Assembly (NCBI GenBank): GCA_045640985.1
Contig: JAZUFZ010000017.1
Span: 18,125-82,124, forward strand
DNA length: 64,000 bases
Direction: 5' to 3'
Source of the DNA: Bacteroidales bacterium
Lineage (GTDB): Bacteria; Bacteroidota; Bacteroidia; Bacteroidales; P3
The translations under genes were made by a program, and so were the position numbers. The notes beneath the pieces are model-generated. The model saw only the letters and a list, made by a program, of their open reading frames with translations, was not told the DNA's origin and ran no database searches. How positions within the stretch are numbered: position 1 is the stretch's first letter; every line of letters begins with the position of its first letter. Shown here one piece after another: positions 42,801 to 60,231 of this stretch.

Positions 42801-45800
42801 AGCCAGCAAGGTCACGTTGTAAGATACGCTGTCGAACTGTGCAGTGTAGGTAGCGTCGCCACCAACGGTGATAACACGTGGGTTAGCCACAACGCCGTCG
42901 TTCCACTGAACGAATTCGTAGCCTTCATTTGCAGTTGCTTCAAGAGTATCTTTTGCACTGAGTACAAATTCACCGGAACCGGTTACGGTACCACGTTCTG
43001 CAACGTTGGCAACAGCGGTGATAGTGAATGTTGTATTAGCCTCTTCGAAGATTGCGGTGTATTCTGCGTCACCGGTGATGGTGAGTACGCGTGGGTTGTC
43101 GGTGTTACCGTCGCTCCAGCGTGCGAATACGATGTTGTCTTCGAGGTTGGTATCGATAGCTTCGATATTAGTCGTACGGTTATACAGGTAGCGGCCTGCA
43201 CCGGTTACAGTACCGTAAGTAGAGTTAACTGCTACGGTGAAGGTATCAGGTGCGAAGTATGCCATGTAGAAGTTACGTGCGCTGGTGAACTCGAAGGTAT
43301 ATGGGTTCTCTCTGCTGTTGCCGCTCCAGTAATTGAAGTGGTAACCGAATGCAGGAATTGCCTCGATAGTAACTTCGGTGCCATATACAAACTGGCCAGC
43401 ACCGGTAACAGTACCCTGAGCTACGTTGTTGGAAACAACATTCAAGGTGTGGGTATCAGGCTGGAAGATAGCGGTCAGCAAGGTATCGCTGGTTACACGC
43501 AGACGGCGTGCAGCCTCGGTATTGTTGTCGCTCCAGTTTACAAAGCGGAAGTTAGTATTTGGTATAGCTTCGATGTTAGCGTAGCTGTTTACAGCGTAGG
43601 TGCCAGCACCGGTAACAGTACCCATAGTTGCGTCGTTGGTGTTCAAGGTAACGGTGTACTGAGCATCAACTGGCTCGAACATTGCAATGTAGGTAGCAGG
43701 ACCTTCAACCTGAACAGTACGTGGGTTGTCGGTAATGCTGTCTTCCCACATCGTGAATGCGAAGCCGGCACGTGGGTTAGCTGTCATTTCGGCGTTGCTC
43801 AGGTATGCGTAGTTGCCGCTTCCGGTAACGGTACCCATACTGTTGTTAGCGCTGAGAACAGTGATTGCGAACTGTGCAGCTGAGAATTCTGCTACGAGTG
43901 TAGTATCGTCGGTTACAGTTACGCGGCGGGATGCGGTAGTTACACCGTCATTCCAACGTACGAACTGGTAGCCGTAGTTAGCGGTTGCTCTTACGGTAGT
44001 GGTACCGAGGTAAGCAACGTCAGCATCTTCAGATACTGTACCCATTGCAAGGTCAGCGGACTGAACAGTTACGTGGAAGGTATCCTTAACATAGATTGCA
44101 GTCAGGTTGATGTTTTCTCTCAACTGGCCGCTGCGTACCATCGTGGTCACGCTATCACTCCACATCTGGAATACATAGCCGTGGTTTGCGGTGGTGCTGA
44201 TAGTGTAAGGAGAATTGTAGTTCAAGGTATCTGCGCCTTCTACAATACCTGCACCGGCAGGAGTTACGTGCAGTGCAATGATATATGCGTTAGGTGCGAA
44301 GGTTGCAGTGAGATTTACATCGCTTTCAACGATCATCACGCGTGCGGTATCGGTGTTGCCGTCGCTCCAGGACTCGAAGTGGTTGCCGAGAGTTGCATTA
44401 GCGTTCAGCACGAGTTCGGTACCGTGTTCAACGGTGGTGGTCAGACCCTCAACGCCTTCGATAGAGATGCTGCCCATAGCTGCGAAGCCTTGAGATGCAA
44501 ATGCGATGGAAACGTTGTAGGTGTTGATTTCGAAGTTAGCGGTGTAGTCGGCATTCTGGGTTGCAACAATCTGACGGGTCAGGTTGGTGTCACCGTCTGC
44601 CCATCCCGTGAAGTGGTAACCGTATGCAGGAACTGCTGTCAGAGTAACAGTGTCATTTGCATCGTAGATACCGCTACCGAGTGCTGTACCCATATTGTCG
44701 TTGTTTGCAAGTGCATTTACAGTGTAGCGTGCTTCAGTAGCGAAGTTAGCTACGAGTGTATCGTCATAGAGAACGGTGTAGCTGCGTTCAGCATTGATTT
44801 CACCATCGCTCCAGCCGTTGAAGTAGAAGCCTGCTGCAGGAACTGCGGTGAGGGTGATTTCGCTGTTGAATGGGTAGCTGCCTGTACCGGTCACCATACC
44901 AGCGTTAGCAGGATCAACCACTGCTGCGATAGCGAAGGTGTCAGGTACATAGTAAGCCGTAATATTAATGTTGTCGTAAACGCGGAAGCCGATAGCCTGT
45001 TCGGTTTCGCCGTTGCTCCAGTTCTGGAACTGATAGCCGTAGTAGTTAGGTGCGTAGAGAACTGCGGAATCACCGTAGCCGTACATACCAGTACCGCGGA
45101 TTTCGATGTCTTCGAATTCAGTTTCAGCAGCAACTTCGAAGCTGTCCTTAGCAAAGATTGCAGTCAGAACAGTATTCTCGACTACTTCGATGGTGCGTAC
45201 GGCCTCTTCGTTACCGTCGCTCCATGCTACGAAGTAAGCGTGTTCGTTAGCGATAGCCTCAATGTCCACCATTGCGCCATAACCAACTTCGTCGAAGGAT
45301 GCAGTAGCGGTACCCATTACGGTATCGTTAGAGCGTACGAGTACACTGTACAGGTCTGCCTCGAAGTAAGCGGTCAGGTCGTAATCCTGGTTCATCAGGA
45401 GACTGCGGCTTGCTGATGGATTTTCATCACTCCATTGTACGAAGTGGTTACCAACAGTAGGAGTAGCTGTGATGTAAGCGTAAGAGTCTTCAACATATTC
45501 GCCTTCGCCTTCAACGGTACCGAGTTCTTCGTCGTTGGAAGCAAGGGTTACGTTGTACTGCTGAGGAACATACAGACGGATGTCATCGATGCAGCAGCTG
45601 TATTGGTTGCTGTAGTACCATCTGAATGCTATGCGGTCAGCATCTTCCGGAACTTCGCTCAGGTCGATGGTAACTTCGCTCATGGAACCATTGTGGCTGG
45701 ATACCTGCTGAATCTGAGTGAAGGTGTTGAAGTTGTTGTCGCCTTCCTTGATATAACCAACGGTCAGCGTACCATAGGAAGCGCTTTCCGTCTGTCTCCA

Positions 45801-48800
45801 GAACTTCATCTTCATCGTATTGAGTTCAGCACCCATCTTAGGCAATGCTGCATAGTTATAGCCGCTGCCGTAGAAGGTCAGAGCCTTGCTGCCGCTATGC
45901 TTGTAGTAGTAAGATCCGGAACTGATTACGTGAGGACGAACACTACCGGTTGAGTAGGTCTTCCAGCAGTTGATTGCGTCAGCATCGATGTCATAAGTAT
46001 AGCCTTCGTAGCTTTCGAAGTCTTCTTCGTAAGGCAGTGCGCTTTCACCGCAGTACTGGAAGCCGTTGCCGGCAACCCAGCGGGAAACAAATTCACCGTC
46101 TTCATCGCAGATAGCTCTTACCTTCCAATTGATGGTAGTTACTGCTACGAGGTCTTCGAGATTATAGTTTTCAGATGCAGATCCTTCAAATACTACCGTA
46201 TCCATACCGTTAGCCCACAGTACATATTCGTAAGATGCGGGATCGGTTTCCGGATCAGGAGTTATACTGAAGTTTACAACGCCCATTTCTTCTCTTACAG
46301 AAGCAACGGCGAGTATAGGCTGACGGCAGAGAGGAGCAGTTGCAAAGATTGCGCTGTTCCACAGAGTGATGTCGTCAGTACCTGCACATGTAGGAGCAAT
46401 ATAGAAGTAGTAGTCTGCGTCAGCAGTGAGATCTTCAAGATCCAAACCGAGAGCAGTTACACTTGTGAGTTCAGCAGCTGCGATACCCTCGATAGTGAGA
46501 GGTTCGGTGCTGAGAACATAGTTGTAATCCAGGTTACCTGCTTCTGAAGGATACCAGTCGATATGGGCTGCATCAGCAGTTACGCCGCTTACATTGATTC
46601 TGTTCACGCGGTTGCAACCAGTGCTTGATGCGAAGCAGAACTTGATGTTTGCGTGTCCTTCTACTCTTCCAGGACCATTACCCTGTGACTGAGGATTTGT
46701 CAAGCTGAATGCGGTACCGTCTTGGTACTTATAGATAGTAGTATAGCCGTCTGTTTCGGTACCTGCTGCAGAATATCCATAGGATGAAGTGTGTGATTCA
46801 CCTGCTGCCTGGTTGGTGATGGTGGCAATTACGATATTGCTCTGGCCATCCCAGAACCATGGAGTAGAGAACTCGAAGGTCATCTCACCTGCTTCGTCAC
46901 CCTCGGAACGACTGATAGGTCCGCATACCTGGGTAAGATTGCTGTGAGGAACCATACCAGCTACAGTTGCACTGGTAAATTCATCCATGCTGGTAGAACC
47001 GATAAAGATATAGAGATCTTTGTTATAACCTGCTTCTTCAGTCCAGGTGTAAGAGATAGATTCGATGCTGCCTGCACCATAGTTCTGGGCAGCCATCTCA
47101 TCAACAGTGATAATCTGCTGTGTATAGCTGTTGCCCCATCCGGTGTAGGTAGGAGCACCGCTGTATTCATCTTCACCGTCACCGATGGTTACGCATCCGG
47201 AAGCAGTACCTGCTGCGGGAACGTTGAAGGATACAGAAGCTTCAGCACTGTTGCCTTCTTCGCACATTGCGCTTACGTAAGCACGATAGGTTTCGCCTGC
47301 AACGGAGAATGGAATAACTGCAGTATTGGTGTTTACGGTCATAATCTGAGCGTTGGCTGAAGAATCTTCAGGTTCGCCATATACCCAGATTACCTGCCAT
47401 TCGGTTTCCTCGCCGAACTCGCCGCGCTCCCAGTTCAGGGATGCTGCCAGAGAGGTTACGTTGGAAACGGTCAGGTTCACAGGAGTAGCACATGCAGGAG
47501 GCATGGTGAAGCTTACTTCCTTCCAGCTGCTGCGTGAGCTGCCGCAAACATTAGTTACATAGATATAGTAGGTTTCGCCTGGAACGAGATCCTCAACATA
47601 AGCCTCAGTTACGGTGAGGTCTGCCTCTTGGTAATCGTCCTCGGTCAGTTCTGCCAGGGCACCGTCTTCGAGAGCTTCGCTGCTGATTACGTATGCGAAG
47701 TTGCCTTCCATACCTTCATAGAAGTTCCAGGTGATGGTAGCGGTGGTAGTACTGGTGATGTCAGCTGCAAGGTCAACAACCGAGCGGCAGTCAGCGAAGG
47801 TTCTGAACATGTATGGAGCCCATACACTGTAGCCTTCTTCATGACCGTTGGCGTTGCAACGTGCGCGTACATATACATAGTAGTCAACCTCTGGATCGAG
47901 ACCGTTGAGTTCGCAAGTGAGTGCGTTGCCGGAGAAGTTGTAGCTGTCGAGAGAATCGATAGTTGCAAAATCAACCACAGCGGTGTCGCTTACTAACACG
48001 TCATAGTATCCAACATAGTCGGAAGTAGAAGAGGTCCAGCTGAGAGTAGCGGAAGAAGAGGTGATGTCGCTTGCTGCAATTTCGGTTGCAGGTTCGCAAG
48101 CCTCATTTTCTTCGCAGATGGTGAAGCGGATGTTGTTGCGTACGCTGAGTACGTCACCGCTTGCGCCAGAAGTTGCAGCATTGTCCGGAGTGAACTGGGT
48201 GCCATCTCTGTACACATATACAGACTTGTTGCCAGTGCAGGAGGTTACATTGTAGGAAGATCCACTGCTCCAGCTGCCGTTCACGTTGTTGATAGCCACA
48301 ACCAGGTTGGAGGTGCCGTCATACATGAAAGGTTCTGCCAGAGTGAAGGAGTTCCAGCCGATAGTGGTACCCATGTGTACATTGTGTGCCACCAGGGTCA
48401 GCTCGCTGCTAGGAACAAAGTCATCGGTACCGGAGAAGGTCGATTGGGTGGTAGTACCCAGGTAGATATCCACCATGCGGTCCTTAACAGCTGCGTTCTG
48501 GATAGCGAATGCGGTGATAGGACCAGAGGTGAGTTCTTCCTTATCGAAGATCTGCTGGCTGTAACTGTAGTCGTATGTAGAGTAGAGAGGCATATAGCTG
48601 TTGGTTCCGCTGCTGTTGCCCATCTGATGTACATCGCAATAGTTAAGAGCCTTGGTCTTAGCGTTAACGCTCAGCCATGCAGGTGAACATTCGTTGCGCA
48701 GATAGAAGTAGTAACCGGTTTCGCGTTCGAGACCGCTTACATGATATACTCTTTCATAGCCTTCACCTTCTGCGGTGATGGTCTGGTATTCAGCAGCTGC

Positions 48801-51800
48801 AAGTTCTTCAGCAGTCAGGGCAACGGTGTCATATACCAGTTGGAAGGTATAGAGCGCGCTGTCTGCGGTGTTGAAGTTGAGGTTCAGTCTCGTACGTTCA
48901 ACCTTATTTGCAGTCAGGCCGTAGAGGGTAGGACAACCCTCGATCAGTACGCGGATTTCCCATTCGGTAGCTGCTACATCCTGGCCGGCAGGCTGCAGAT
49001 ATACAAACTGACCGTAGGTAAAGTCGAGAACGCCTGCACCGGATACAAGTACATGACCTGCAGCATCCAGTACGGTAGCGTTATTGCTTACGCGGAATGT
49101 AGATACCAGATTGGCAATATCTGCGTCAGCACGTACGGTAACTTCGATTACGTGGTTAATAGCATCTATGCTGGTAGTACCTACCTGATAGTCTGCAACA
49201 GCGTAAGAAGTGAAGGTTGCTTCATCGTTAAGTGTACGAACATTTACGAAATTAACAGCAGGCTCGCTGGTGCTGTTGTCGCATACAGCGCGTACGCTGA
49301 ATACATAGTTGGTATTGGCAGTCAAACCACCGAGATTTACATTTACGTTGGTACCTTCAACGGTAGCAGCCATATAAGGAATCTGGTAGGTCTGGCCTGT
49401 CAGTGTATCGGTGATTATCCATGCTACGCATTCGCCAGGCTGTTCCCAGGTCAGATCAACAGAATGAGCATTCACCTGCTGAGCTGCGAGACGGAAACTG
49501 TTAGGACGACGGCAGTCAGGAATGTAGTTCATACCAAAGTTGTCAAGATAGATCCAGTTTTCGCTGGAGCCGACCTTTTCAACAGAGAACATGATGCGGT
49601 CGCCTGCTATCTCACCAAATTCGTCGAGATAGATTTCATAGTTCTCATAGTCGGTTGAGTTGAGTTCGATGGTAGTAAGTTCCTGAAGGTTGGTGATAGC
49701 ATCACCTTCAATAGACAGAGCATACAGTTTTACCTGACCTTCGTAGCTGCTGCTGTAGCGTCTTGCCTTGAAGGTCACCATTGTGGTGTTCAAAGCGGCA
49801 GGAACCACAGGAGTGATGATAGATCTCATGGTATATGTACCATACGCATCAAAGTTCAGATAAGCTGTAGTACCAGAAGTGACAAGTGTAGGTGAAGAAC
49901 CTGCAACACGCCAGCAGCCTAAAGATGGGCTGTCTTGGGCAAACTCATCGAGGAATGGGAGCGACATAGTACCACAGAGTTGGAACTGATCGCCATTGGT
50001 CCAGCGAGAGGTATCGCCTTCGCCGCAGATGCTGCGTACACGCCAGTTGTAGATAGCGATGTTTGGCAGAGAGGTGATTGCAACACTGTCACCTGCTACG
50101 ATGCTGATATGTTCAGCATCTTCAACCTGAGCATTCCAGAATTCATATTCGAATTCCTGAGCCTCGCCGTATTCACCGTCATGAGCCACAACGCAGATTA
50201 CGGTGTCTTCGTTAGCATACAGACTCTTGATGCTTGGAGCAGAGCAGGATGGGAGGGTAGTAAATTCGGTGCCAACCCATTTTGACTCTTCAGAGCAGAT
50301 TGGACGAACATATACATAATAGGTAACGTCGATTACCAGGTCATCGTAGGAGATGGATGGAGTTTCAACAGTTACAGGAGTAGCTTCTGCCAGAGCAGAT
50401 TCGGTCAGAGGCTCTTCGCTTCTTACCACCTGCCAGCTGGTCTCGCTTCCACCGGTGTACCATACTACGTCAGCAGTGTGGCTTGCCACATTCTGTGCCG
50501 TTACATGGGATACTGCCGGGCAGTCGCCTGCGAGGAAGCAGAACGTTACGTTAGGACGATACGTCAGTGTGGTAGTGTTACCTGTTGCGAACGGATCTGA
50601 AACAGTCAGTTGTGTACCATCCTGGTAGCATGCTACAACGGACGTATAGGAAGTTGAAGTGTACTGAGGAGTGAATGAACTACTTGTGGACTGGCTTGTA
50701 CCATCAGGCTGGTTGCTCAGGATACCTACCACAAGGTTGCTTGTACCATCCCATTCAAATGGAGTGGTGAAGTTATAGGTAAATGCTCCTTCACCTTCAT
50801 TAGCACCACGAACGAGAGGTCCGCAAACCTGCGTCATCTGGTTTTGTGGAATACGGTCTGAAGCTGAACCGAAGGAGTTCATAGTGGTAGTTCCCATGAA
50901 AGCATACACTTTCTTTTCAGCAGATGCTGCAGGATAGCTCAGAGAGATAGCGTTTATCATACCTGCATCGAGACCCATTGCGTGCATTTCATCAGCTCTG
51001 AAAAGAATCTGGGTATAGTAGTTACCCCAGTTGTATGGAGCACTGGTAGATCTGCTGGTACCTGTACCAATCTGTGTACAGTCAACCTTTACAGGAGTGT
51101 TGAAGTTCAGAACTGCAGGAGTGATACTTGGGGTACCATTGCAGATAGAGCGGACTTCAAGTCTGTAGTTGGTTGCAGGAGTGAGGTAGGTTACTACTGC
51201 TGAAGGATTGCTTACGGTGAACACCTGAGCATCGCCCATCTGTGCGCCGGTAGAATCAACAGCGTAGCAGGTTACCTGCCATTCGTTTTCATCTGCAAAG
51301 TTTGCAGTATCGCTCTCCCAAGCCACGGTAACACCGGTAGGTGCCTTGTCGGTCAGGTGAACATTGATAGGAGCAGGACAGGATGGAACCATGTCGAACT
51401 CGTAGCATACGTATGGGCTGTTGCCATCGTTGCCACCGCAGACGTTAGACAGATAGAAGTAGTAATGCTGGTCAGGAACCAGATTGCTTAAACCGATAGA
51501 AGTAACGTTCAAACCGCTGGCACTTACATTGTAGTTGTCAGGATTTGGAACTGCAGTAGGAGAAATGATGTAACGATAGTTAGCATCCTGGGTTGCGTCT
51601 GCACTCCAGCTCATAACAGCAGTGGTCTTGCTGGTGAATGCCACTGAAATGTTTTCAGGAGCACGGCAGGCTGCGTGAGTCTTGAATGGAATGCTGTTCC
51701 AGGTGCTGATACCGTCGTCCTGACCTTCACCGTTACACTTAACTCTGATGTAGAGATAGTAGTCGGTGTAAGGCATCAGGTTCTGGATGGTATAGGAAGT

Positions 51801-54800
51801 AGCGTCAAATGCCGTCAGGATTGAGCTTTCAGGCATGTTGGCGAGTTCGTCATCAGTCAGAACGGTAGTATCGATGATAATCTGGTATTCACTTGCATAG
51901 TCACCGTCGGATGACCAGTTGAGCGTTACCACGGTAGGATCATCGTTGTCATAATCTACAACAAGGTCTTTTACCTGAGGACATGCCATATCCAGACCGC
52001 AGTGGTTGATGGCCAGCTGCAGACGGAAGTTTGAGGAAGTACCAACGGAAGAAGACGGCTGGTTGTTGTAGGTATAGTGATCATTGTCACTATATTCATA
52101 ACGGGAAACACCAGAGGTGGTCTGATTACCATAGTAGTAGTTGTAATTACTGCTGTAACTACCCTTATTATCCACGAAAGTAATCACGAGGTTGCTGCTT
52201 CCGTCAAAGGTATAAGGAGCAATCAGTTCGAGATCCTGCCATCCGGTATTTGCACCAATCTGGCCTTCCCATGCGAGAACGGTATTGCTGCTGTTCATGG
52301 ATACCCAGCCGCTGGACAGAGAAGCGGCATCGGTCTTGGTCAGATACATCTGAACTGGACGGATATCGTTTGCAGTCTTACAGTTGATGGAAATAGTGTT
52401 GATGGTAGTAGGCAGAAGTTCTTCAGCCTGGAAGAGCTGCTGTGTGTATGCATAGTTGTAGAATACATAACCTGGGAAATAGCTGCTGTTGGAAGTACTG
52501 GTACCGAGGGTATCGTTTACTACCTCTTCACAGTTGAAGTAACCGAGATTAGGAGTGGTTACAGTACCACTGATCCAGCGGCTCTGGCTTTCACCACAGT
52601 TAGCACGTACATATACATAATACATAGTATCGCGTACGATGCCTTCTTCGCGGGTGAAGGTATAGCGGTTAGCGTTGGTTACTACGATAGGTTCGTTCTG
52701 CTCAAGTTCTGCCTCGGTGAGAGGTTCGTTGCCATAGAGCAGGTCGAAGGAAGTAACGTTTGCATCAGGATTGGTCCATACTGCGGTGAACTCGCGGCGT
52801 TTCACGTTCTCGAAAGTGAGAGCGGTAGGAGTAGCGCAAGGTTCGATGTTCAGGTAGATGGTCCAGAGCTGATAGATAGTAGGATCAGCTGATACTACAT
52901 AAACCTGGAGACCGCCTTCGTAGTTGTAGTTGTTGCTGTTGCTCCAGTTGAATCCGTTCACACCGTCAATCTTGGCGGTTGCGCCGTCGCTTACGCTCAG
53001 GCGGGCACGTACGGAGGTGAGATCAACACCATAAACTACATTTACATTAACAGTATGATTAACGCTGTCGATAACAGCATTACCGATCTGCTGGTTAGCA
53101 TTGTAGAGGCTGAAGGATGCGATATAGGTTGCATCGTTCTTGGTAGTAACTACAACAGAGTCGTTGCTCCATGCAGAATAACCGTTCTCTTCGCCGCAGT
53201 TGCCGCGTACGTGGAGCGTATATTGGGTATTAGGCAGGAGGCCGTTCAGTGTGTAGGATACTACATTAGCGTCATTAGGAGTTACGTTGGAAACGGTAAC
53301 CGTTTCGGTAACGGTCTCGTAACCGTAAGGAGTTACGGTCTGATGTTTGTATTCAATCTCCCAAGTGTCGGCATCACCTACAGTACCGTTGGTCCATTTT
53401 ACTGGGATGCTGTAAGCAGATACACCTGCGAGAGCGTTATATACAAAGTTGGTAGGCTTAGCACAGGTAGCACCGGAAGCAACTACGATGTTGTCGATGA
53501 GGGCAACGTTGCTTGCAGAGGTGGAAGTGCCGGCACCGGTGTAGCGGAATGCCAGACGGACACCGTCAGCAAATGCCATGGTATCAGTGCTGAAGAGGTG
53601 GTCACGGGTGGTCATGCTGCCGCTTGTAGGAATAACCTCAACAGCGGTAAATTCTTCACCGTCGTAAACACCCAGTTCAAGAGTACCGTTGGAAACCTGA
53701 TAATCGAAGGTGAGCATCAGGGAAGCCACTTCGTCATTGAACTCAGGAAGCACTACGATAGAAGGAGCCGTAGTGGTAGCCACCATGGAGAGTGCATAGT
53801 TGGCATTACCGGTCTGGTATGCGAATGCCAGAGGAGCGGTAGTGCGGTTGTTGCTGATTCCCGGGAAGTCGAAGCAGTAGAACACATGGTCAAGATCTGC
53901 ACGGCCGTGGAAATCTTCAGGAGCATTCTGTACGGTAGTAGAATAGCTGATAACGCCGTTGAAGTCTTCGGTCCAAGGCAGTTCAGCGTGGCTGATGGAA
54001 GCGCATCCGGTAGAAGCTACAACAGGATTGCTCCACATACTGTAGTTATTGCCGCATACGGCGCGTACTGCCAGTGCATAGATGGTGCCTGGGAGCAGTT
54101 CTACGTCGTGGGAAGCAAATGAGAAGCCTTCGCGTTCGTCTGGATCATCTACGTCCACCATATCATAGAGATATGCGTTGGTGTCGCTGTTGAATTCCAT
54201 TGCGTTGGCCTCGTTGAAGTTTGCACAAGCCTTATATACTACCTGATAGATAGGACTGTCGTTTTCGTCGTCAATCCAGGTAAGAGGAATATCATTGGAA
54301 GAAATCTCGGTTGCGTCGAATGCCAGTTCAACAGGCTTTTCGCAGAGAGGTTTCTCTCTCAAGGTTACGTCATCGATGGTGATGGTGTAGCTGCCGGCTG
54401 CGGTGTTGTTGTTCACCTTCATGGCTACGAAACGACCTTCACCTTCATAATCGGTAAGGTTGAGTTTGTACTCTTCAAATACAGTAGAATCAATATTAAT
54501 AACGTCAACCAATTCAAAAGTATTGGTATCGGCTGGGTCGCTCATCACACCAATCTGGAGCACACCGTCTGCATTTGCAGAGGAGGTCTTTGCCCAGAAG
54601 GAGAGCTGTACCTGGCTCATTTCATATCCGTCGATAACCTCTGGGAGGATAGCGATGGAGTTCTGGTATGCGCCGGCGTTGCCGTTTACTACAAACTGCA
54701 TTGCATTACCGCTGCGGCCTAAATTGGTAGCAAGCTTAGGAGTGGTGGTAATGGTGCTGTTCGACTGCCAGCAATATACGTTGAAGGTACCTGCTCCAAC

Positions 54801-57800
54801 TTCATCACCGTCGAAAGTGGTGGTGAATGGGAGATCCCAAGGAGCGCAGGAAGTTCTGCCCTGAGTCATGGCATACTGGAGACCGTAGCTGTCGGAGCAC
54901 TGTGCCAGTACGTAGAACAGGTAAGGAGTATTAGGAGCCAGACCAGAGATAGTCAAGGTAGAGTCACCCTGGCAGAGTTCCGATACATAGTCGCCGCTGT
55001 AGATAGCAGTGTTGAATGGATCGAAAGCAAGATAGTTGTCGCTCTCAAGTGCGCGTACTGCATATACCATGTGGCCGGTAGTGAGTTCGCGTTCAGCGTT
55101 ACGGGCATCCTCGGTGAAAGCGATGGTTGCCGTGGTAGGAGTAGCGATTACGAAATCGGCACTCTTCATGCTGAAGCAGTCAGGCTCGGTCACACACATG
55201 CGGAAGCGCATGTTTGGACGGTATCCGGAAGTGCCACGGCTGCTATAGGAGCCTTCATAAGAATAAATACTTGCGCCGGAAGCGGAAGTACAGAGAACGT
55301 ATGGATAGATATAACCCGAACCCTCAATCTGAGCGGTGTCACCGGTTCTCTTAACCTTGATTATGAGGTTGCCGTTGGCAGGATCATATTCAAATGGGGT
55401 GGTCAGCACGATGTCAGCCCAAGTACCTCTGATCAGACGAACCTCACCGCTGTAAACCTGCTGCATTGCCGGCAGGGAGCTGGTATCGGATGCTGAAGAG
55501 AAGGAAGCTCTCGTGTCCTGAGCCATATAGACTTTTACAGGATAGGAAACATCACCGCTGTTGCCAGGATTAACCTGATAGCTGATGCTCTTGATCTGTC
55601 CTGGGAACACATCCATGTTCTCAAGGTCAGAAGCCTTGTAGATAGTCCAGGAAGTTGCATAATCATAGCTGTAATATGCAGGGAAATATCCTGAAGTAGA
55701 GGTACCAGTACCATAAACTACATCACGATAGCTCTGCTCACCGCAATCTACGCTGGTGGAGAAGACAGCCACTGCAGACCAGTCGCCATAGGTCTCATCA
55801 TCGCAGTTGGCGCGTATGGCAACCTTATAGCTGGTCAGTTCATCCAGACCCTGGATGGTGTAGGTGGTATCGCTGCCGGTAGTAGTGAACTCACCGAGCA
55901 TCGTAGTAGGATCGTCTGGGTTGAATCCCTCGACTGGTCCGTAGATGATGGTGTAGTTATCGGCATTCTCCAGTGGATAGCTCCATGTGAGGGTTGCGCT
56001 GGTAGCGTCAGACTCTGCACATGCTACGTCTGTAACTTTCTTACAGGTTGCGATATGACGAACTCTGAAGTTGTCTATTGCAGTAAGATAGTTGCTTGTA
56101 CCTGCACGTGAGAACACGATGCGAGCGTTGCCGGTCACGTCGAGATTGTCGCACAGAATATCCACATTGAAATTAGAATGTGCAGTATAACCAGCCGGAG
56201 CCTCGATGGTGTCGAAATAAACTACGGAGTTGGAACCTTCAAGCATGTAGCCGATATACAATGGGCCACAGGAAGAATAACTCTCAAAGCTCAGGTCAAA
56301 CACCACCTCCATCTGATTCAACGGATGGTTGAATACTGGAGTTGCAAAGGTGTTAGGTCCGTTTACATACAGATATTTTGATGAGAACGTATGGTAGCTT
56401 GAAGCCGTGGAAGCAGGTTTCACTGCTGCCGGATAGCTGCTGCTAAGCGCGATAGGAAGCCAGCACTCAGGAAGGCTGCCTTCCGGATCAGCATTGAAGT
56501 TGTTGGCATAAGGAACATCCAATGCCTGGCATGCAGTGTGAACGCCGAGCAGAGAAACCACTTCGCTGCTGTCGGTTGCGCTGCAGACGCCGCGTACATA
56601 GAAGTCGTAATCCTTGTTAGGGGTAAGACCTTCTACCAGGTAGCCGGTCGTATCCTCTACGGTTACGGTATAATGAACATCATCCATGCCGAATCCTGCG
56701 GTATCGTAGTCGATAATCCATGTGGTTGCCTCACCGATATTATTCCAGGAGAGTTCTACGGTGTTGGAACCGGCATTGGCTACGAGATCGATTGCAGGAA
56801 GACAGGATGGCATTTCAGTAATCTCAAGATCATCAAATACGGTGTAGTATGATGAACTCTCACCGTGAACATCGATGATGATGTATCCTTGAGTGATAGG
56901 AGAAGATGCCAGATAGGCTGAGAACTGGGAATAGGAAGTACTTGTAACGTGGAATACCGTTATAGTATCAAATTCCGGAAGTTCGCCTGCGGTAACGCTT
57001 GGGGCAACACCGATGGTGATGTCACCGAGATAGCTTGTGTTCTCCAGACGGGCCCACAGTGAAAGCTGGAGTTCCTGGAGATTATCAATGAGACGGGCAA
57101 CCGCTACAGTATAGGCATATCCATAGGTGTACATACACTTACCGGTACGGGCACCTGTAGAACTTGCCTGCGGATACTGAGGATCTGCCTGATACAGGAT
57201 AGTCCATCCTGTAGGAATTCCGTCTACGTTATTGAAGTTTTCTGAATAAGGTGCAGCCAGAATACTGAAAGCTGGTGAAGAAGCAAGGTTACTTACATTT
57301 TCAGAACTGCAGTGGCTTCTTACCTGAACGGTATATTCAGTATTAGCAGTCAGGTTGGAAAAATCAGCATAGGTAGTGAAAGGTTCGCATACGACAGAGT
57401 CGATAGGACCTTCAGGACCATACAGGATAGCAGTATAGTAGGTACCGGCATCGGCATGGGAATTTTCCCATGTTGCGTGAACTCCCATAGTGCTATAGTT
57501 AGGAGTTGCCGTTACATGAGCAGGAGCATAGCAGAAATCATCACCGGCTGGAACCATCACGAACTTGGTGTTCGGACGGGCAGCATCCGTACCTGCCGTA
57601 GTAGTGTTGTCAAGGCTTGCATAAGAAGGATCTGAGTCGCTTTCACGATACATCGCCTTATGGTCAGATGTGCTTCCACTATTATAGAATGTCACAGAAT
57701 TGTTATAGGCGCTACCCACATGGGTAACCGTAATAACAATACTGCTGGTTCCATCATAGTAGAATGGAGTAGCCAGTTCCACTGTGAACCACCCGGAGGG

Positions 57801-58163
57801 GACCGTCAGCGGATTGTCGAAGGTTGCCACCTGCGTCAGATCAGCAGCAGGTGTCCAAGCAGTGAGCGTGGTTGACGAGGAAGTACCCATGTAAACGGTG
57901 TACTGACTCGGAATAGAACCAGAGCCATTGACTTGGAACGCAATTGACTGGATGTAGGAAGGAACTTCTCCCAATTCCTCTGAGGTGTAAATCATCTCAC
58001 AACGGCCATTCTTGTAGTAGTTCGTCATAGGGACATAGTATCCCGATGATGTACCTGTACCAATAATGACTTCGTTCTGAGCCATCACAGAGGAACTTCC
58101 AGGCGTTAGCCACGGCACTACCAGCGCCGCTACTAACAACATTCTAAGTAAAAAGTTTCTCAT
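39882..58163 (-). CDS. giant (6,093 aa) T9SS-sorted multidomain surface/adhesin-like protein
   Basis: Single open frame of 18,282 nt. Signal peptide MRNFLLRMLLVAALVVPWLTPGSSSVMAQ. Six unassigned 'A' modules, six adhesin/choice-of-anchor-J-like modules, ~19 FN3-like domains, 26 InlB-B-repeat-like units and a type-A T9SS C-terminal domain. Confidence 0.9.
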   Translation of the reverse strand: MRNFLLRMLLVAALVVPWLTPGSSSVMAQNEVIIGTGTSSGYYVPMTNYYKNGRCEMIYTSEELGEVPSYIQSIAFQVNGSGSIPSQYTVYMGTSSSTTLTAWTPAADLTQVATFDNPLTVPSGWFTVELATPFYYDGTSSIVITVTHVGSAYNNSVTFYNSGSTSDHKAMYRESDSDPSYASLDNTTTAGTDAARPNTKFVMVPAGDDFCYAPAHVTATPNYSTMGVHATWENSHADAGTYYTAILYGPEGPIDSVVCEPFTTYADFSNLTANTEYTVQVRSHCSSENVSNLASSPAFSILAAPYSENFNNVDGIPTGWTILYQADPQYPQASSTGARTGKCMYTYGYAYTVAVARLIDNLQELQLSLWARLENTSYLGDITIGVAPSVTAGELPEFDTITVFHVTSTSYSQFSAYLASSPITQGYIIIDVHGESSSYYTVFDDLEITEMPSCLPAIDLVANAGSNTVELSWNNIGEATTWIIDYDTAGFGMDDVHYTVTVEDTTGYLVEGLTPNKDYDFYVRGVCSATDSSEVVSLLGVHTACQALDVPYANNFNADPEGSLPECWLPIALSSSYPAAVKPASTASSYHTFSSKYLYVNGPNTFATPVFNHPLNQMEVVFDLSFESYSSCGPLYIGYMLEGSNSVVYFDTIEAPAGYTAHSNFNVDILCDNLDVTGNARIVFSRAGTSNYLTAIDNFRVRHIATCKKVTDVACAESDATSATLTWSYPLENADNYTIIYGPVEGFNPDDPTTMLGEFTTTGSDTTYTIQGLDELTSYKVAIRANCDDETYGDWSAVAVFSTSVDCGEQSYRDVVYGTGTSTSGYFPAYYSYDYATSWTIYKASDLENMDVFPGQIKSISYQVNPGNSGDVSYPVKVYMAQDTRASFSSASDTSSLPAMQQVYSGEVRLIRGTWADIVLTTPFEYDPANGNLIIKVKRTGDTAQIEGSGYIYPYVLCTSASGASIYSYEGSYSSRGTSGYRPNMRFRMCVTEPDCFSMKSADFVIATPTTATIAFTEDARNAERELTTGHMVYAVRALESDNYLAFDPFNTAIYSGDYVSELCQGDSTLTISGLAPNTPYLFYVLAQCSDSYGLQYAMTQGRTSCAPWDLPFTTTFDGDEVGAGTFNVYCWQSNSTITTTPKLATNLGRSGNAMQFVVNGNAGAYQNSIAILPEVIDGYEMSQVQLSFWAKTSSANADGVLQIGVMSDPADTNTFELVDVINIDSTVFEEYKLNLTDYEGEGRFVAMKVNNNTAAGSYTITIDDVTLREKPLCEKPVELAFDATEISSNDIPLTWIDDENDSPIYQVVYKACANFNEANAMEFNSDTNAYLYDMVDVDDPDEREGFSFASHDVELLPGTIYALAVRAVCGNNYSMWSNPVVASTGCASISHAELPWTEDFNGVISYSTTVQNAPEDFHGRADLDHVFYCFDFPGISNNRTTAPLAFAYQTGNANYALSMVATTTAPSIVVLPEFNDEVASLMLTFDYQVSNGTLELGVYDGEEFTAVEVIPTSGSMTTRDHLFSTDTMAFADGVRLAFRYTGAGTSTSASNVALIDNIVVASGATCAKPTNFVYNALAGVSAYSIPVKWTNGTVGDADTWEIEYKHQTVTPYGYETVTETVTVSNVTPNDANVVSYTLNGLLPNTQYTLHVRGNCGEENGYSAWSNDSVVVTTKNDATYIASFSLYNANQQIGNAVIDSVNHTVNVNVVYGVDLTSVRARLSVSDGATAKIDGVNGFNWSNSNNYNYEGGLQVYVVSADPTIYQLWTIYLNIEPCATPTALTFENVKRREFTAVWTNPDANVTSFDLLYGNEPLTEAELEQNEPIVVTNANRYTFTREEGIVRDTMYYVYVRANCGESQSRWISGTVTTPNLGYFNCEEVVNDTLGTSTSNSSYFPGYVFYNYAYTQQLFQAEELLPTTINTISINCKTANDIRPVQMYLTKTDAASLSSGWVSMNSSNTVLAWEGQIGANTGWQDLELIAPYTFDGSSNLVITFVDNKGSYSSNYNYYYGNQTTSGVSRYEYSDNDHYTYNNQPSSSVGTSSNFRLQLAINHCGLDMACPQVKDLVVDYDNDDPTVVTLNWSSDGDYASEYQIIIDTTVLTDDELANMPESSILTAFDATSYTIQNLMPYTDYYLYIRVKCNGEGQDDGISTWNSIPFKTHAACRAPENISVAFTSKTTAVMSWSADATQDANYRYIISPTAVPNPDNYNVSASGLNVTSIGLSNLVPDQHYYFYLSNVCGGNDGNSPYVCYEFDMVPSCPAPINVHLTDKAPTGVTVAWESDTANFADENEWQVTCYAVDSTGAQMGDAQVFTVSNPSAVVTYLTPATNYRLEVRSICNGTPSITPAVLNFNTPVKVDCTQIGTGTSRSTSAPYNWGNYYTQILFRADEMHAMGLDAGMINAISLSYPAASAEKKVYAFMGTTTMNSFGSASDRIPQNQMTQVCGPLVRGANEGEGAFTYNFTTPFEWDGTSNLVVGILSNQPDGTSQSTSSSFTPQYTSTSYTSVVACYQDGTQLTVSDPFATGNTTTLTYRPNVTFCFLAGDCPAVSHVTAQNVASHTADVVWYTGGSETSWQVVRSEEPLTESALAEATPVTVETPSISYDDLVIDVTYYVYVRPICSEESKWVGTEFTTLPSCSAPSIKSLYANEDTVICVVAHDGEYGEAQEFEYEFWNAQVEDAEHISIVAGDSVAITSLPNIAIYNWRVRSICGEGDTSRWTNGDQFQLCGTMSLPFLDEFAQDSPSLGCWRVAGSSPTLVTSGTTAYLNFDAYGTYTMRSIITPVVPAALNTTMVTFKARRYSSSYEGQVKLYALSIEGDAITNLQELTTIELNSTDYENYEIYLDEFGEIAGDRIMFSVEKVGSSENWIYLDNFGMNYIPDCRRPNSFRLAAQQVNAHSVDLTWEQPGECVAWIITDTLTGQTYQIPYMAATVEGTNVNVNLGGLTANTNYVFSVRAVCDNSTSEPAVNFVNVRTLNDEATFTSYAVADYQVGTTSIDAINHVIEVTVRADADIANLVSTFRVSNNATVLDAAGHVLVSGAGVLDFTYGQFVYLQPAGQDVAATEWEIRVLIEGCPTLYGLTANKVERTRLNLNFNTADSALYTFQLVYDTVALTAEELAAAEYQTITAEGEGYERVYHVSGLERETGYYFYLRNECSPAWLSVNAKTKALNYCDVHQMGNSSGTNSYMPLYSTYDYSYSQQIFDKEELTSGPITAFAIQNAAVKDRMVDIYLGTTTQSTFSGTDDFVPSSELTLVAHNVHMGTTIGWNSFTLAEPFMYDGTSNLVVAINNVNGSWSSGSSYNVTSCTGNKSVYVYRDGTQFTPDNAATSGASGDVLSVRNNIRFTICEENEACEPATEIAASDITSSSATLSWTSSTSDYVGYYDVLVSDTAVVDFATIDSLDSYNFSGNALTCELNGLDPEVDYYVYVRARCNANGHEEGYSVWAPYMFRTFADCRSVVDLAADITSTTTATITWNFYEGMEGNFAYVISSEALEDGALAELTEDDYQEADLTVTEAYVEDLVPGETYYIYVTNVCGSSRSSWKEVSFTMPPACATPVNLTVSNVTSLAASLNWERGEFGEETEWQVIWVYGEPEDSSANAQIMTVNTNTAVIPFSVAGETYRAYVSAMCEEGNSAEASVSFNVPAAGTASGCVTIGDGEDEYSGAPTYTGWGNSYTQQIITVDEMAAQNYGAGSIESISYTWTEEAGYNKDLYIFIGSTSMDEFTSATVAGMVPHSNLTQVCGPISRSEGDEAGEMTFEFSTPWFWDGQSNIVIATITNQAAGESHTSSYGYSAAGTETDGYTTIYKYQDGTAFSLTNPQSQGNGPGRVEGHANIKFCFASSTGCNRVNRINVSGVTADAAHIDWYPSEAGNLDYNYVLSTEPLTIEGIAAAELTSVTALGLDLEDLTADADYYFYIAPTCAGTDDITLWNSAIFATAPLCRQPILAVASVREEMGVVNFSITPDPETDPASYEYVLWANGMDTVVFEGSASENYNLEDLVAVTTINWKVRAICDEDGEFVSRWVAGNGFQYCGESALPYEEDFESYEGYTYDIDADAINCWKTYSTGSVRPHVISSGSYYYKHSGSKALTFYGSGYNYAALPKMGAELNTMKMKFWRQTESASYGTLTVGYIKEGDNNFNTFTQIQQVSSHNGSMSEVTIDLSEVPEDADRIAFRWYYSNQYSCCIDDIRLYVPQQYNVTLASNDEELGTVEGEGEYVEDSYAYITATPTVGNHFVQWSDENPSASRSLLMNQDYDLTAYFEADLYSVLVRSNDTVMGTATASFDEVGYGAMVDIEAIANEHAYFVAWSDGNEEAVRTIEVVENTVLTAIFAKDSFEVAAETEFEDIEIRGTGMYGYGDSAVLYAPNYYGYQFQNWSNGETEQAIGFRVYDNINITAYYVPDTFAIAAVVDPANAGMVTGTGSYPFNSEITLTAVPAAGFYFNGWSDGEINAERSYTVLYDDTLVANFATEARYTVNALANNDNMGTALGSGIYDANDTVTLTAVPAYGYHFTGWADGDTNLTRQIVATQNADYTANFEINTYNVSIAFASQGFAAMGSISIEGVEGLTTTVEHGTELVLNANATLGNHFESWSDGNTDTARVMIVESDVNLTATFAPNAYIIALHVTPAGAGIVEGADTLNYNSPYTISTTANHGYVFQMWSDSVTTMVRSGQLRENINLTAIYVKDTFHVTVQSADLAMGTVSEDADVAYLGTTTVRATANYGYQFVRWNDGVTTASRRVTVTDDTTLVAEFSAAQFAITVLSANNSMGTVTGSGNYAYLSNAEMTANPRAGFAFTMWEDSITDNPRTVQVEGPATYIAMFEPVDAQYTVTLNTNDATMGTVTGAGTYAVNSYANIEAIPNTNFRFVNWSDNNTEAARRLRVTSDTLLTAIFQPDTHTLNVVSNNVAQGTVTGAGQFVYGTEVTIEAIPAFGYHFNYWSGNSRENPYTFEFTSARNFYMAYFAPDTFTVAVNSTYGTVTGAGRYLYNRTTNIEAIDTNLEDNIVFARWSDGNTDNPRVLTITGDAEYTAIFEEANTTFTITAVANVAERGTVTGSGEFVLSAKDTLEATANEGYEFVQWNDGVVANPRVITVGGDATYTAQFDSVSYNVTLLADAKMGTVEGAGRYVSGRTATISATCTKAGYHFFNWSDGNTDNPRVLTVNEDITLTATFAVDTLTVTASVNDPALGTINGLNAGGRYTYGSYLTLAATANFGYEFVSWNDGNTNNIYQTIVTEDLNLVATFGPREYTINAAAEYAERGTVEGAGSYLYMSEAVLTAVANYGYHFVGWTDGVTDATRTVTVNGPNSYVALFDPNMYTVSVAIDTNMGTCTIEDAQTAYGETAVLTVEPKFGYIFNGWSDGDVANPRTVTVMGDTVLTATFVADSFDITVLAGNDLGTVEGTGRFAYGEEVTISATPLDAQQNSFWYWNDGDTNAIRTIVVEGNATYTAMFGGHTYRVYVTAENGTVSQTNNGMILYGEYDTIHVTPNYGYVFAGWADGNMDSVRVVEVTGNMNLTALFTKMTFAVVVNAAENGTATGSGEYEYESFATLSATADAHYHFTNWSDGATDNPYNYQVLGDATLTANFAIDTHTVTATANNAEMGAVTVTGGVGNQFIYGLYATINAQAAYGYKFVEWSNGETVNPLQILVHSDTAVTAIFAVDQFDINVTCNAIEGTTTGTGSYDYGTTAVIEATPNYGYHFVQWSDNNTENPRNVLVSSDRNFVAQFARNNYTLTLNVDSTYMGTVEGAGTFAFEDTVTITASANHGYHFTQWNDGDTNAVRRVVILSDTAFSAQYARNLYTITTSVNDPELGTVTGAGQYLFGQQVVLTAIPADASVTFTNWGDAVTENPRTITVNDDAEYRANFQRTLQTYTITLQVNDAVMGTVTGGGSYLEGTTAHIAAVANEHYEFDSWSDGNTNAVRDIVVTSNLTLTANFVAMNYMITVSCDATMGTVTGSGSYAYNTTATITATARQGYEFVQWSDGNTNATRTITVTGDAEYVAEFRAVQGIDDVDALDVNIYSTNGNIVVKGAANQSIYIYDAVGRCVNHVAENYSEVNEFTMPTSGVYMVKVGNLPARRVVVVR
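39885..40109 (-). other. region encoding the T9SS type-A C-terminal sorting domain of the giant protein (last 75 aa)
   Basis: IDDVDALDVNIYSTNGNIVVKGAANQSIYIYDAVGRCV...SGVYMVKVGNLPARRVVVVR, the typical Por_Secre_tail pattern. Confidence 0.8.
40110..45557 (-). repeat. 26 tandem ~70-aa InlB-B-repeat-like (Listeria-Bacteroides repeat) units, diverged at the DNA level
   Basis: I parsed all 26 units by eye. Consensus: Y.(V/I)T(V/L)..N....GTV.G.G.Y.......I.A.(P/A)N.GY.F..WSDG.T.N.R...V..D..LTA.F. 5,448 nt / 26 = 69.8 aa per unit. Confidence 0.85.
46632..47195 (-). repeat. giant-protein module A, copy 6 (approximate bounds)
   Basis: GCVTIGDGEDEYSGAP...YTQQII..DEM...PWFWDGQSNIVIAT...HANIKFCF. Confidence 0.55.
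48114..48638 (-). repeat. giant-protein module A, copy 5 (approximate bounds)
   Basis: YCDVHQMGNSSGTNSYMPLYSTYDYSYSQQIFDKEEL...PFMYDGTSNLVVAI...NNIRFTIC. Confidence 0.55.
50535..51080 (-). repeat. giant-protein module A, copy 4 (approximate bounds)
   Basis: DCTQIGTGTSRSTSAPYNWGNYYTQILFRADEM...PFEWDGTSNLVVGI...YRPNVTFCF. Confidence 0.55.
51999..52532 (-). repeat. giant-protein module A, copy 3 (approximate bounds)
   Basis: NCEEVVNDTLGTSTSNSSYFPGYVFYNYAYTQQLFQAEEL...PYTFDGSSNLVITF...NFRLQLAINHC. Confidence 0.55.
55192..55748 (-). repeat. giant-protein module A, copy 2 (approximate bounds)
   Basis: DCGEQSYRDVVYGTGTSTSGYFPAYYSYDYATSWTIYKASDL...PFEYDPANGNLIIKV...YRPNMRFRMC. Confidence 0.55.
57548..58076 (-). 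repeat. giant-protein module A, copy 1 (approximate bounds)
   Basis: VIIGTGTSSGYYVPMTNYYKNGRCEMIYTSEEL...PFYYDGTSSIVITV...ARPNTKFVMV. Confidence 0.55.
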
Positions 58164-58821: not shown

Positions 58822-60231
58822 CTACTCCTTATGGAACCACTTGCGGAAGCGATGCCGCCATACCGCCGGATCGAAAAACACAGAATCGGTAGTCGCCTGA
58901 AGGGTCAGCAGAATGCCTATGGGAAGGAACACAAAGGACGAAAGCCACATACCCACCGGCGGAAGCGCGCCCCCGCGGACCGCCTTCTCCGCAATCATGC
59001 CTATCACATAATAAAGCACGAAGAAAAACACCGAAGCCACCAGAGGAACCCCCAGTCCGCCCTTGCGGACGATAGAGCCGAAAGGCGCCCCGATAAGGAA
59101 CATCAGCAGGCAGGCAAACGAAAGGGTATATTTACGCTGCCACTCCACATAGTGACGGTTGATATACTCGGAATCCGACTGGAGAATCTGGTTATAGGTG
59201 CGGATATCGTCGAGGGTAAGACGGCAGACATTCATCGCCTGTTCCTTCACCCGACGTTTCTGTTCATCGCTGTAAGACTGAAACTTAGCCTGGATATCAT
59301 ATACTGTATCGAGTGGCGTTATGCCCCCGTTATGCACACAGATGAAAGCCCGCATCTTGTCGCGTTTGCTGTCGGAAAATTCCTGATAGCGGTGTTCCCG
59401 CGCCTCCTCAAGGGCAGTAATCGTACTGTCGAGCTGCGACACATTCTGCATCTGGCTTCCCCCATGGAAAAACTCCCCGTCGGACTTGGAAAAGGAGAAC
59501 GAAGAGATATCGAAAGTAAGGATTTCCTCATCGAAACGGATGGAAGTCAAGGGGCGGGTATAGAACTTTTCGCCCTCGAACTCCTCGGAATAGGAATAGC
59601 CGTTCCGGAGGGTAAAAAGCAGATACTGACTGTCGGGACTGGTCTGCATGAAACCCGACTTCGCTACTATCACATTGTTCTGGTGAGTCCCACCCGTATG
59701 GTCATAAACGATAATGTCGTGAAGTTCCCCGTTGCTCTCCTTCTGGTTGATGCGGATCACATAGCCGTCGATGTCGGTATAATACTCGCTGGGACGGATA
59801 TTGAGGGCGGGTTTCTTGCGGGTAACATCATAAAGGAGCGTCTGGTATTTCAGCATGGCTACGGGCATCACGTTATTGGCGAAATAGAAGGCTACTCCCG
59901 TGAGAATCAAGGCAAGAAAAGCCATGGGCATCATGACTCTCCGGATAGAAATTCCCCCCGCTTTCATAGCAACCAGCTCGTATTTCTCGCCGAAATTACC
60001 CATAGTCATAATGGAGGCGAAAAGCACCGATATCGGAAGCGCCATAGGGACAAAGGTGGCGGAAGCATAGAACAGAAGTTCCATGATAACTTTGAACTCC
60101 AGACCCTTGCCCACCAGATCATCTATATACTTCCATACGAACTGCATGAGCAGCACAAAGACCGCGATGGTGAAGGTAAGCACCAAGGGCCCGAGAAACG
60201 ATTTCAATATAAGACGATCCAGTTTTTTCAC
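58822..60231 (-). CDS. LptF/LptG-family LPS export permease
   Basis: MKKLDRLILKSFLGPLVLTFTIAVFVLLMQFVWKYIDDLVGKGL is a typical YjgP/YjgQ N-terminus. TM-periplasmic domain-TM layout. Confidence 0.82.
   Translation of the reverse strand: MKKLDRLILKSFLGPLVLTFTIAVFVLLMQFVWKYIDDLVGKGLEFKVIMELLFYASATFVPMALPISVLFASIMTMGNFGEKYELVAMKAGGISIRRVMMPMAFLALILTGVAFYFANNVMPVAMLKYQTLLYDVTRKKPALNIRPSEYYTDIDGYVIRINQKESNGELHDIIVYDHTGGTHQNNVIVAKSGFMQTSPDSQYLLFTLRNGYSYSEEFEGEKFYTRPLTSIRFDEEILTFDISSFSFSKSDGEFFHGGSQMQNVSQLDSTITALEEAREHRYQEFSDSKRDKMRAFICVHNGGITPLDTVYDIQAKFQSYSDEQKRRVKEQAMNVCRLTLDDIRTYNQILQSDSEYINRHYVEWQRKYTLSFACLLMFLIGAPFGSIVRKGGLGVPLVASVFFFVLYYVIGMIAEKAVRGGALPPVGMWLSSFVFLPIGILLTLQATTDSVFFDPAVWRHRFRKWFHKE

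Follow-up and report, generated by a model that had tools for sequence, protein, structure and literature searches.

An unnamed domain family, predicted to fold as a beta-sandwich, present in six copies in a giant putative type IX secretion cargo of a Bacteroidales bacterium

Repeated jelly-roll domains are already familiar from those surface proteins of the Bacteroidota that use a secretion system of type IX (T9SS), where the gingipain cleaved-adhesin (HA), MAM and choice-of-anchor J domains occupy the same niche as the module described here and co-occur with it. Two further comparisons are useful at the outset: SGBP-B, a surface glycan-binding protein of Bacteroides whose xyloglucan-binding domain is a beta-sandwich held distally by Ig-like spacers, and the carbohydrate-binding module (CBM)-like domains of the acetylxylan esterases PbeAcXE, CspAcXE and FjoAcXE, which, like a domain of Cwp84, are accessory beta-sandwiches in proteins that are secreted or lie at the surface. 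Our subject is a module, here called A, that occurs six times in a giant protein of 6093 aa, encoded by a minus-strand open reading frame (ORF) of 6093 codons at 39882-58163 of the window, the 64,000-nt stretch of DNA analysed here (positions 18,125 to 82,124 of contig JAZUFZ010000017.1, assembly GCA_045640985.1, from a Bacteroidales bacterium of GTDB lineage P3). We lean, by a little, toward reading the six modules as copies of a nameless beta-sandwich family of ∼175 aa that would serve non-catalytic binding and be displayed multivalently on a T9SS-anchored protein. A protein identical to the ORF product is on record at NCBI, and all six A intervals lie in the frame of this ORF:

Module A1: 57548-58076, minus strand, aa 30-205; without the bracketing cysteines
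Module A2: 55192-55748, minus strand, aa 806-990; Cys-bracketed, the most divergent copy
Module A3: 51999-52532, minus strand, aa 1878-2055; Cys-bracketed, nearest paralogue A5
Module A4: 50535-51080, minus strand, aa 2362-2543; Cys-bracketed, nearest paralogue A6 (38% identity, independent E-value 4e-35)
Module A5: 48114-48638, minus strand, aa 3176-3350; Cys-bracketed, the copy used for the structure model
Module A6: 46632-47195, minus strand, aa 3657-3844; Cys-bracketed, hypervariable in one strain variant

The A modules are about 175-188 aa long and share 19-38% pairwise identity. With each one used as a single phmmer query against the whole protein, the other five were recovered, most pairs with independent E-values of 1e-5 to 1e-35, and no further region of the giant protein was retrieved; the weak pairs were modules 1 and 4 (about 1e-4) and modules 2 and 6 (independent E-value 1, not significant, joined through the other copies). 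Two profiles, one built from the six modules and one from 439 copies in other proteins (six of which belong to a near-identical strain variant), each gave exactly six matches in the window and none elsewhere or in other frames, which bears out the six copies that a sequence-only reading of this window had called. These identities, taken with the profile matches, indicate that the repeat is real and ancient rather than a recent tandem duplication; judged by sequence comparison, the six modules are paralogous copies of one domain family. The four ordered motifs proposed in the same reading survive as a loose consensus that is found nowhere else in the protein, though as literal patterns they fit four, one, four and four of the six modules, respectively. 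The A2 segment PFEYDPANGNLII carries a one-residue insertion within the D-G-x-S-N motif.

Searches for a known family used Pfam-A (2025 copy), NCBIfam (June 2026), PHROGs and the sequences of the PDB. At cut-off, Pfam-A and NCBIfam returned no match for the six modules, for 14 family members, for the family consensus or for homologues that consist of the module only, and three proteins that are almost wholly A module (P0035, P0039 and P0136) contain no Pfam family. The A modules matched neither PF07675 nor NF038128 in the Pfam and NCBIfam scans, the PHROGs scan gave no match to the module, and three profiles, of 6, 14 and 33 sequences, searched against the sequences of the PDB yielded matches at chance level only (an ORF1ab chain of a coronavirus with E 0.12 and a galectin with E 2). 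Full-text literature searches found no paper describing it. In databases the homologues are named ‘hypothetical’, ‘fibronectin type III domain-containing’, ‘choice-of-anchor J/D’, ‘GEVED’ or ‘T9SS type A sorting domain-containing’, and every name other than ‘hypothetical’ derives from a domain that lies beside the A module. By the measure of these searches, the A module is a large domain family without a name in Pfam, NCBIfam or the PDB. The sequence-only reading had placed it in no known family, and a confident match to a characterized one was looked for and not found.

Two Pfam families do appear below threshold. DUF4082 (PF13313), which we take to belong to the galactose-binding-domain-like superfamily, is the recurrent best Pfam match; it aligned with three of the six window modules, with four of the 14 alignment members and with the consensus, over about 80-100 residues and co-linearly in the central and C-terminal strands. 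Its scores were 20.8 bits (A3 and the consensus), 15.2 (A5) and 12.9 (A1), all under the gathering threshold of 28.4, and A2, A4 and A6 gave no match. Like the A module, DUF4082 is all-beta, of similar length and found in secreted multidomain proteins, and the A family is probably a distant relative of it. The stronger proposal, that A is a divergent member of DUF4082 rather than a new family, takes its support from this recurring, co-linear match, and we regard it as a tentative possibility. Even the best score is below the gathering threshold, PF13313 is absent from the homologues listed with precomputed Pfam domains, and the N-terminal third of the module (the I-G-T-G-T strand and Y-x-P loop of the segment I-G-T-G-T ... 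Y-x-P ... Y-x-Y-S-x-x-Q) falls outside the alignment; moreover, DUF4082 itself has no assigned function, and we found no functional literature on it, so that membership would leave the module unexplained. The second family, SGBP_B_XBD (PF18329, the xyloglucan-binding domain of SGBP-B), was matched by the family consensus at 21.2 bits (gathering threshold 26.4, E 3.3e-4) and by none of the six real modules, and no SGBP-B chain is among the 50 best fold matches listed. SGBP-B is a lipoprotein encoded in a polysaccharide utilization locus (PUL), whereas the giant protein is a predicted T9SS cargo outside any PUL.

An AlphaFold2 model of module A5, computed from the 14-sequence alignment, reached a predicted local distance difference test score (pLDDT) of 90.3 and a predicted TM-score (pTM) of 0.88; it shows 13 beta-strands, and its only helices are two of a single turn each. 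A Foldseek search of the PDB with this model gave three matches at E<=1e-3, with TMq values of 0.42-0.49: 7tog and 7toh, which are the acetylxylan esterase PbeAcXE, and 4ci7, the lectin-like domain of Cwp84. Among the matches that came next were the isolated CBM of the related esterase FjoAcXE (7tok) and PHR domains, together with ligand-binding domains of Eph receptors and lectins of the ConA type. Taken together, the CBM-like domains of PbeAcXE, CspAcXE and FjoAcXE (7tog, 7toh, 7toj and 7tok) and the Cwp84 domain (4ci7) are the best fold matches, at Foldseek probability 1.00, but their TM-scores of 0.42-0.52, root-mean-square deviations of 5-8 Å and identities of 8-17% leave homology not demonstrable. 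On this model, the A module would be a beta-sandwich of jelly-roll type that falls in the broad CBM/lectin class, with no close solved relative. Set beside the usual description of a CBM as a discretely folded, non-catalytic beta-sandwich module, A offers an all-beta predicted fold, autonomous repetition, varied neighbors and no similarity to enzymes.

The fold matches also bear on whether the partner might be a protein, such as a host matrix component or receptor, or a surface protein of other microbes in co-aggregation, bound in the manner of Eph-, PHR- or MAM-type sandwiches. PHR and Eph ligand-binding domains match the model at scores near those of the CBMs, and in homologues the module co-occurs with BspA-type leucine-rich repeat (LRR) and cleaved-adhesin domains, both known from protein-binding adhesins. 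Against this, carbohydrate-binding domains are what the two best fold matches point to, as does one of the two profile matches below threshold, and the family is strongly expanded in rumen fiber-associated Bacteroidales; we consider a protein ligand rather improbable.

The order of domains in the giant protein was established with iterated profiles built on its own repeats. With A the module under study, F a fibronectin type III (FN3) domain, J and X two other module types without a family, B a B-repeat and SP the signal peptide, it reads SP-A-F-J-F-J-F-A-F-J-F-J-F-X-F-A-FFF-A-F-(131 aa without assignment)-J-F-X-F-A-FFF-A-FF-J, then 27 B-repeats, then a T9SS C-terminal domain (CTD). The FN3 domains are Pfam fn3 matches, and the B-repeats are of a divergent InlB type (PF18998), of which Pfam finds 23 stretches and the self-profile 27. 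The termini are as follows:

Predicted signal peptide: 58080-58163, minus strand, aa 1-28, MRNFLLRMLLVAALVVPWLTPGSSSVMA, read from the sequence
T9SS type A C-terminal sorting domain: 39885-40061, minus strand, aa about 6035-6093, TIGR04183

Cleavage is predicted between VMA and Q, so that the mature protein would begin at Q29, one to two residues ahead of A1; this agrees with the earlier statement that the module heads the mature protein. The same layout recurs in homologues, as a signal peptide, then A-Q/E, then x-I-x-I-G-T-G-T. At the other end the TIGR04183 match (aa about 6035-6082) reaches 23.6 bits, its cut-off being 23, and DUF6383 scores 21.3 bits, under its cut-off. The giant protein has the hydrophobic N-terminal signal sequence and the C-terminal sorting domain by which T9SS cargo is recognized. 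That the A module opens each block of the protein, as had been suggested, is one possible parsing, since an FN3 domain follows every A and precedes every A but the first, and A alternates with J.

An exhaustive profile search of 1.84 billion cluster representatives retrieved 14,498 proteins at E<=1e-3; with the limit set at E<=1e-10 the number is 10,276, and at E<=1e-30 it is 3,331. Each of the top 150 proteins carries 3-14 A copies, with lengths up to 6676 aa, and 80 of them also carry FN3, 44 J, 31 B-repeats and seven X. In GTDB species genomes, scanned with an alignment that samples only its own subfamily, at least 538 stretches were confirmed. Of these, the best 80 come almost all from metagenome-assembled genomes (MAGs) of rumen and gut Bacteroidales and Prevotellaceae (hosts: cattle, buffalo, goat, yak, sheep and deer), often with several loci per genome; among the same 80 are two loci in a ‘Ca. 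Limiplasma’ MAG and one in a Kiritimatiellae MAG, for which binning errors are possible. Named homologues belong to Prevotella, Chitinophagaceae, Pedobacter, Flavobacteriales and Paludibacteraceae, and also to Ca. Cloacimonetes and Ca. Syntrophosphaera (Cloacimonadota), Holophaga (Acidobacteriota) and Armatimonadetes (Armatimonadota).

In 95 of the 150 homologues the first A copy starts no more than 45 residues from the N-terminus (42 of 54 with a limit of 60 residues). TIGR04183 matches 83 of the 150 C-terminal tails; constant co-occurrence with a T9SS CTD, which had been put forward for checking, does not hold, and the T9SS association of the family is frequent, not obligate. The remaining tails are of type B or C, FISUMP, dockerin-like, an ‘LVPGxGYxY’ domain without a family, or truncated. 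About 19 of the top 150 homologues (e.g. P0012, P0020 and P0028) end in this last domain, ∼90 aa long with the pattern ...NWI[AG]FP...LVPGxGY[IM]Y...FPT, and have no recognizable T9SS domain; the one such tail for which an NCBIfam table was drawn up, that of P0012, gave no match there.

Partner domains include FN3, Ig-like/ASH, cleaved adhesin, BspA-type LRR, GEVED, CarboxypepD_reg, TIG, Big_2, PKD, beta-helix/NosD and Peptidase_C10, a variety such as one would expect an accessory module to show. P0035 and P0077 hold little beyond tandem A modules. P0197 and P0205 carry beta-helix/NosD and chitobiase C-terminal domains, whose enzymatic nature is uncertain.

A phage tail or receptor-binding origin of the module was considered and rejected in favor of a probable bacterial-type cargo, as a tblastn search of 50,697 phage genomes and the scan of PHROGs both came back empty. 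The best match among viral structures (BFVD), A0A6J5NL19 (our P0215; TM-score 0.84, 26% identity), is labelled ‘uncultured Caudovirales’ and is a true member of the family. P0215 carries a single A module (aa 146-318) along with a signal peptide and what, by eye, resembles a C-terminal tail of T9SS type, and it looks like a bacterial secreted cargo that is either phage-carried or mis-assigned to phage.

Over the 439 copies, the conserved signature comprises G7 (86%), P17 (95%), Q/E28 (94%), E35 (87%), V91 (96%), W103 (87%), F112 (91%), Y114 (84%), G116 (87%), N119 (94%) and D154 (77%). Most of these positions are, by their residue types, typical of a fold core; the few polar and aromatic ones, with the aromatic-rich loop S-Y-x-P-x-x-x-x-Y-x-Y between strands 2 and 3, form a candidate binding site. 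The conservation of E35, N119 and D154 is also what could be advanced for A as a small catalytic domain, such as a jelly-roll glycoside hydrolase or lyase. We regard that as very improbable: the module has no similarity to enzyme families in Pfam, NCBIfam or PDB sequences, its six to fourteen tandem copies per protein fit binding modules and not catalytic domains, and several homologues pair it with a separate putative enzyme domain (Peptidase_C10, beta-helix).

That most of the strongly conserved positions hold hydrophobic residues or Gly/Pro fits, in turn, a purely structural A module, a beta-sandwich acting as rigid spacer or stabilizer while binding falls to J or other payload domains. Such a role would also suit the constant embedding of A between FN3 domains, the much clearer matches of the J modules to known binding domains, and the homologues that are little more than tandem A. 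It is a serious rival to the binding reading, though in our judgment an unlikely one, given that the polar residues Q/E28, E35, N119 and D154 are kept in 77-94% of the 439 copies, that most members place A preferentially as the first domain behind the signal peptide, where it would lie at the distal tip, that its payloads are very different or it stands alone, and that its differences between strains exceed those of the FN3/B-repeat stalk.

Those strain differences come from four near-identical variants (about 99% identity) compared with the window protein. Positions at which the variants differ from it amount to 1.1-3.0% in the A modules and 1.4-1.7% in the J modules, and to 0.3-0.7% in FN3 and 0.4-1.0% in the B-repeats, so that per residue A and J differ 2-4 times as much as FN3 or B-repeats. 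Variant P0162, at 99% overall identity, has 68 amino-acid differences, of which 28 lie within A6 (15% of the residues of that module); the signature residues there are intact, and several of the changes are toward the residue found in A4. This pattern could reflect gene conversion between copies, localized diversification of surface loops, or relaxed constraint.

The Cys bracket consists of a Cys directly before the first strand and another directly after the last. The sequence-only reading had assigned it to all six modules; it is present in modules 2-6, and both cysteines are missing from module 1. Among the 439 full-length copies, which come from 150 proteins, internal copies have both cysteines in 115 cases, neither in 201, the N-terminal one only in 27 and the C-terminal one only in 29 (odds ratio 29.5, Fisher p = 2e-41), and 51 of 67 N-terminal copies are without both. 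Both-or-neither is what is expected of a disulfide, and the bracket cysteines probably form one that joins the first and last strands. The bracket marks a subfamily that includes copies 2-6, not the whole family. Seen by eye, many FN3 domains of the giant protein also have an apparent Cys pair of their own, C-x-x-P before the first strand and V-R-[AS]-x-C in the last (for example aa 210-285, window about 57309-57536), and each domain of the N-terminal 4200 aa may be individually disulfide-clamped.

The J modules bear directly on how much of the protein's function can be assigned to A. They number six, are ∼120-150 aa long, begin with L-P-[YFW]-x-E-x-F and end with I-D-[DN]-[IVF]:

Module J1: 56820-57173, minus strand, aa 331-448
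Module J2: 56061-56423, minus strand, aa 581-701
Module J3: 54360-54740, minus strand, aa 1142-1268
Module J4: 53481-53843, minus strand, aa 1441-1561
Module J5: 49530-49892, minus strand, aa 2758-2878
Module J6: 45573-45923, minus strand, aa 4081-4197

A Pfam scan matched no J or X copy. The AlphaFold2 model of J (pLDDT 84.6) gave 151 fold matches at E<=1e-3, and matched MAM, CBM16/22/4 and the gingipain K1/K3 cleaved-adhesin folds at TM-scores of 0.55-0.67; comparison of J with a Pfam-confirmed cleaved-adhesin region of P0142 gave no better than E 0.029. In modelled fold the J modules resemble cleaved-adhesin/MAM domains, whereas the A modules do not. On the strength of the model, J would be at least as good a candidate for the binding unit as A, and the earlier picture of A as the functional unit, with FN3 and B-repeats as spacers, gives way to one in which six MAM/CBM/cleaved-adhesin-like J modules alternate with FN3. 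Distant paralogy of A and J was considered and rejected (hhalign of the two alignments, probability 0.2%).

That A would be a ligand-binding unit is plausible. Consistent with it are the CBM/lectin-like modelled fold (a weak match), the location at the N-terminal tip in most members, the varied partners and the higher variability between strains. In the mechanism that we propose, the giant protein would be exported by Sec and then secreted through the T9SS, and its C-terminal domain would anchor it at the cell surface. The 27 B-repeats and the FN3 domains would form a long stalk that keeps the six A modules and the unrelated J modules, also six and MAM/CBM-like, at a distance from the cell, A1 being outermost at the tip; in the subfamily that includes copies 2-6, a disulfide would clamp both ends of the A domain. 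The A modules would bind without catalysis, and their multivalency would suit attachment where the ligand is repetitive; the likeliest is a surface of polysaccharide or glycan, for instance plant fiber, mucus or another microbe. We put a glycan first on account of the class of fold, the leads to SGBP-B and CBMs, and the expansion of the family in fiber-associated rumen bacteria.

Several observations weigh against this preferred interpretation. The sequence of the A module does not reveal a ligand, the matches to PDB folds are weak, at E about 7e-4, which makes ‘CBM-like’ a statement of general fold class and not of a specific relative, and the extra strain variability of A and J could reflect relaxed constraint on loops. 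None of the 16 homologues scanned in full against Pfam has a carbohydrate-active enzyme domain, and the neighborhood of the giant gene holds no SusC/D-type locus, no PUL and no obvious operon; its neighbors are housekeeping genes:

58822-60231, minus strand: LptF/G-like permease
60255-61649, minus strand: RseP-like site-2 protease
38165-39148, minus strand: NAD-dependent epimerase/oxidoreductase

These flanking genes are uninformative on the function of the giant protein. Of the segments of the protein not treated above, X is a module of ∼95 aa whose two copies each lie between two FN3 domains, and the 131-aa stretch, which matches no internal profile and no Pfam family, may be a degenerate FN3 domain by its position:

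First X module: 52779-53066, minus strand, aa 1700-1795
Second X module: 48879-49163, minus strand, aa 3001-3095
131-aa stretch between FN3 and J5: 49893-50285, minus strand, aa 2627-2757

Plus-strand ORFs of up to 1155 aa lie antisense to the giant gene and wholly inside it (40416-43883, 44073-45416, 48741-49658, 52077-52892 and 53055-54122); most likely they arise from its composition and repeats and are not genes.

A more far-reaching version of the binding proposal, which we offer as speculative, makes A the founder of a new carbohydrate-binding (lectin-like) family, which would rank with the most expanded domains that lack annotation in rumen and gut Bacteroidales and would be presented multivalently at the tips of micrometer-scale T9SS fibers for attachment of cells to plant fiber or host glycans, with loops that would diversify between strains, partly by gene conversion, and so change specificity. 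We claim no new principle, and long stalks that bear repeated binding modules of beta-sandwich type are a design already well known; the value of the A family lies in annotation and in providing an experimentally tractable unknown. The domain occurs in more than 14,000 sequence clusters, and many of these are the largest proteins at the surface of rumen and gut Bacteroidales; it is covered by no model in Pfam or NCBIfam and by no solved structure. Proteins that bear it are now labelled ‘hypothetical’ or named after their FN3 spacers, and a family definition would improve the annotation of T9SS cargo. Knowing the ligand would show what these giant fibers attach to, in the colonization of rumen fiber and in adhesion by Prevotella-like gut bacteria.

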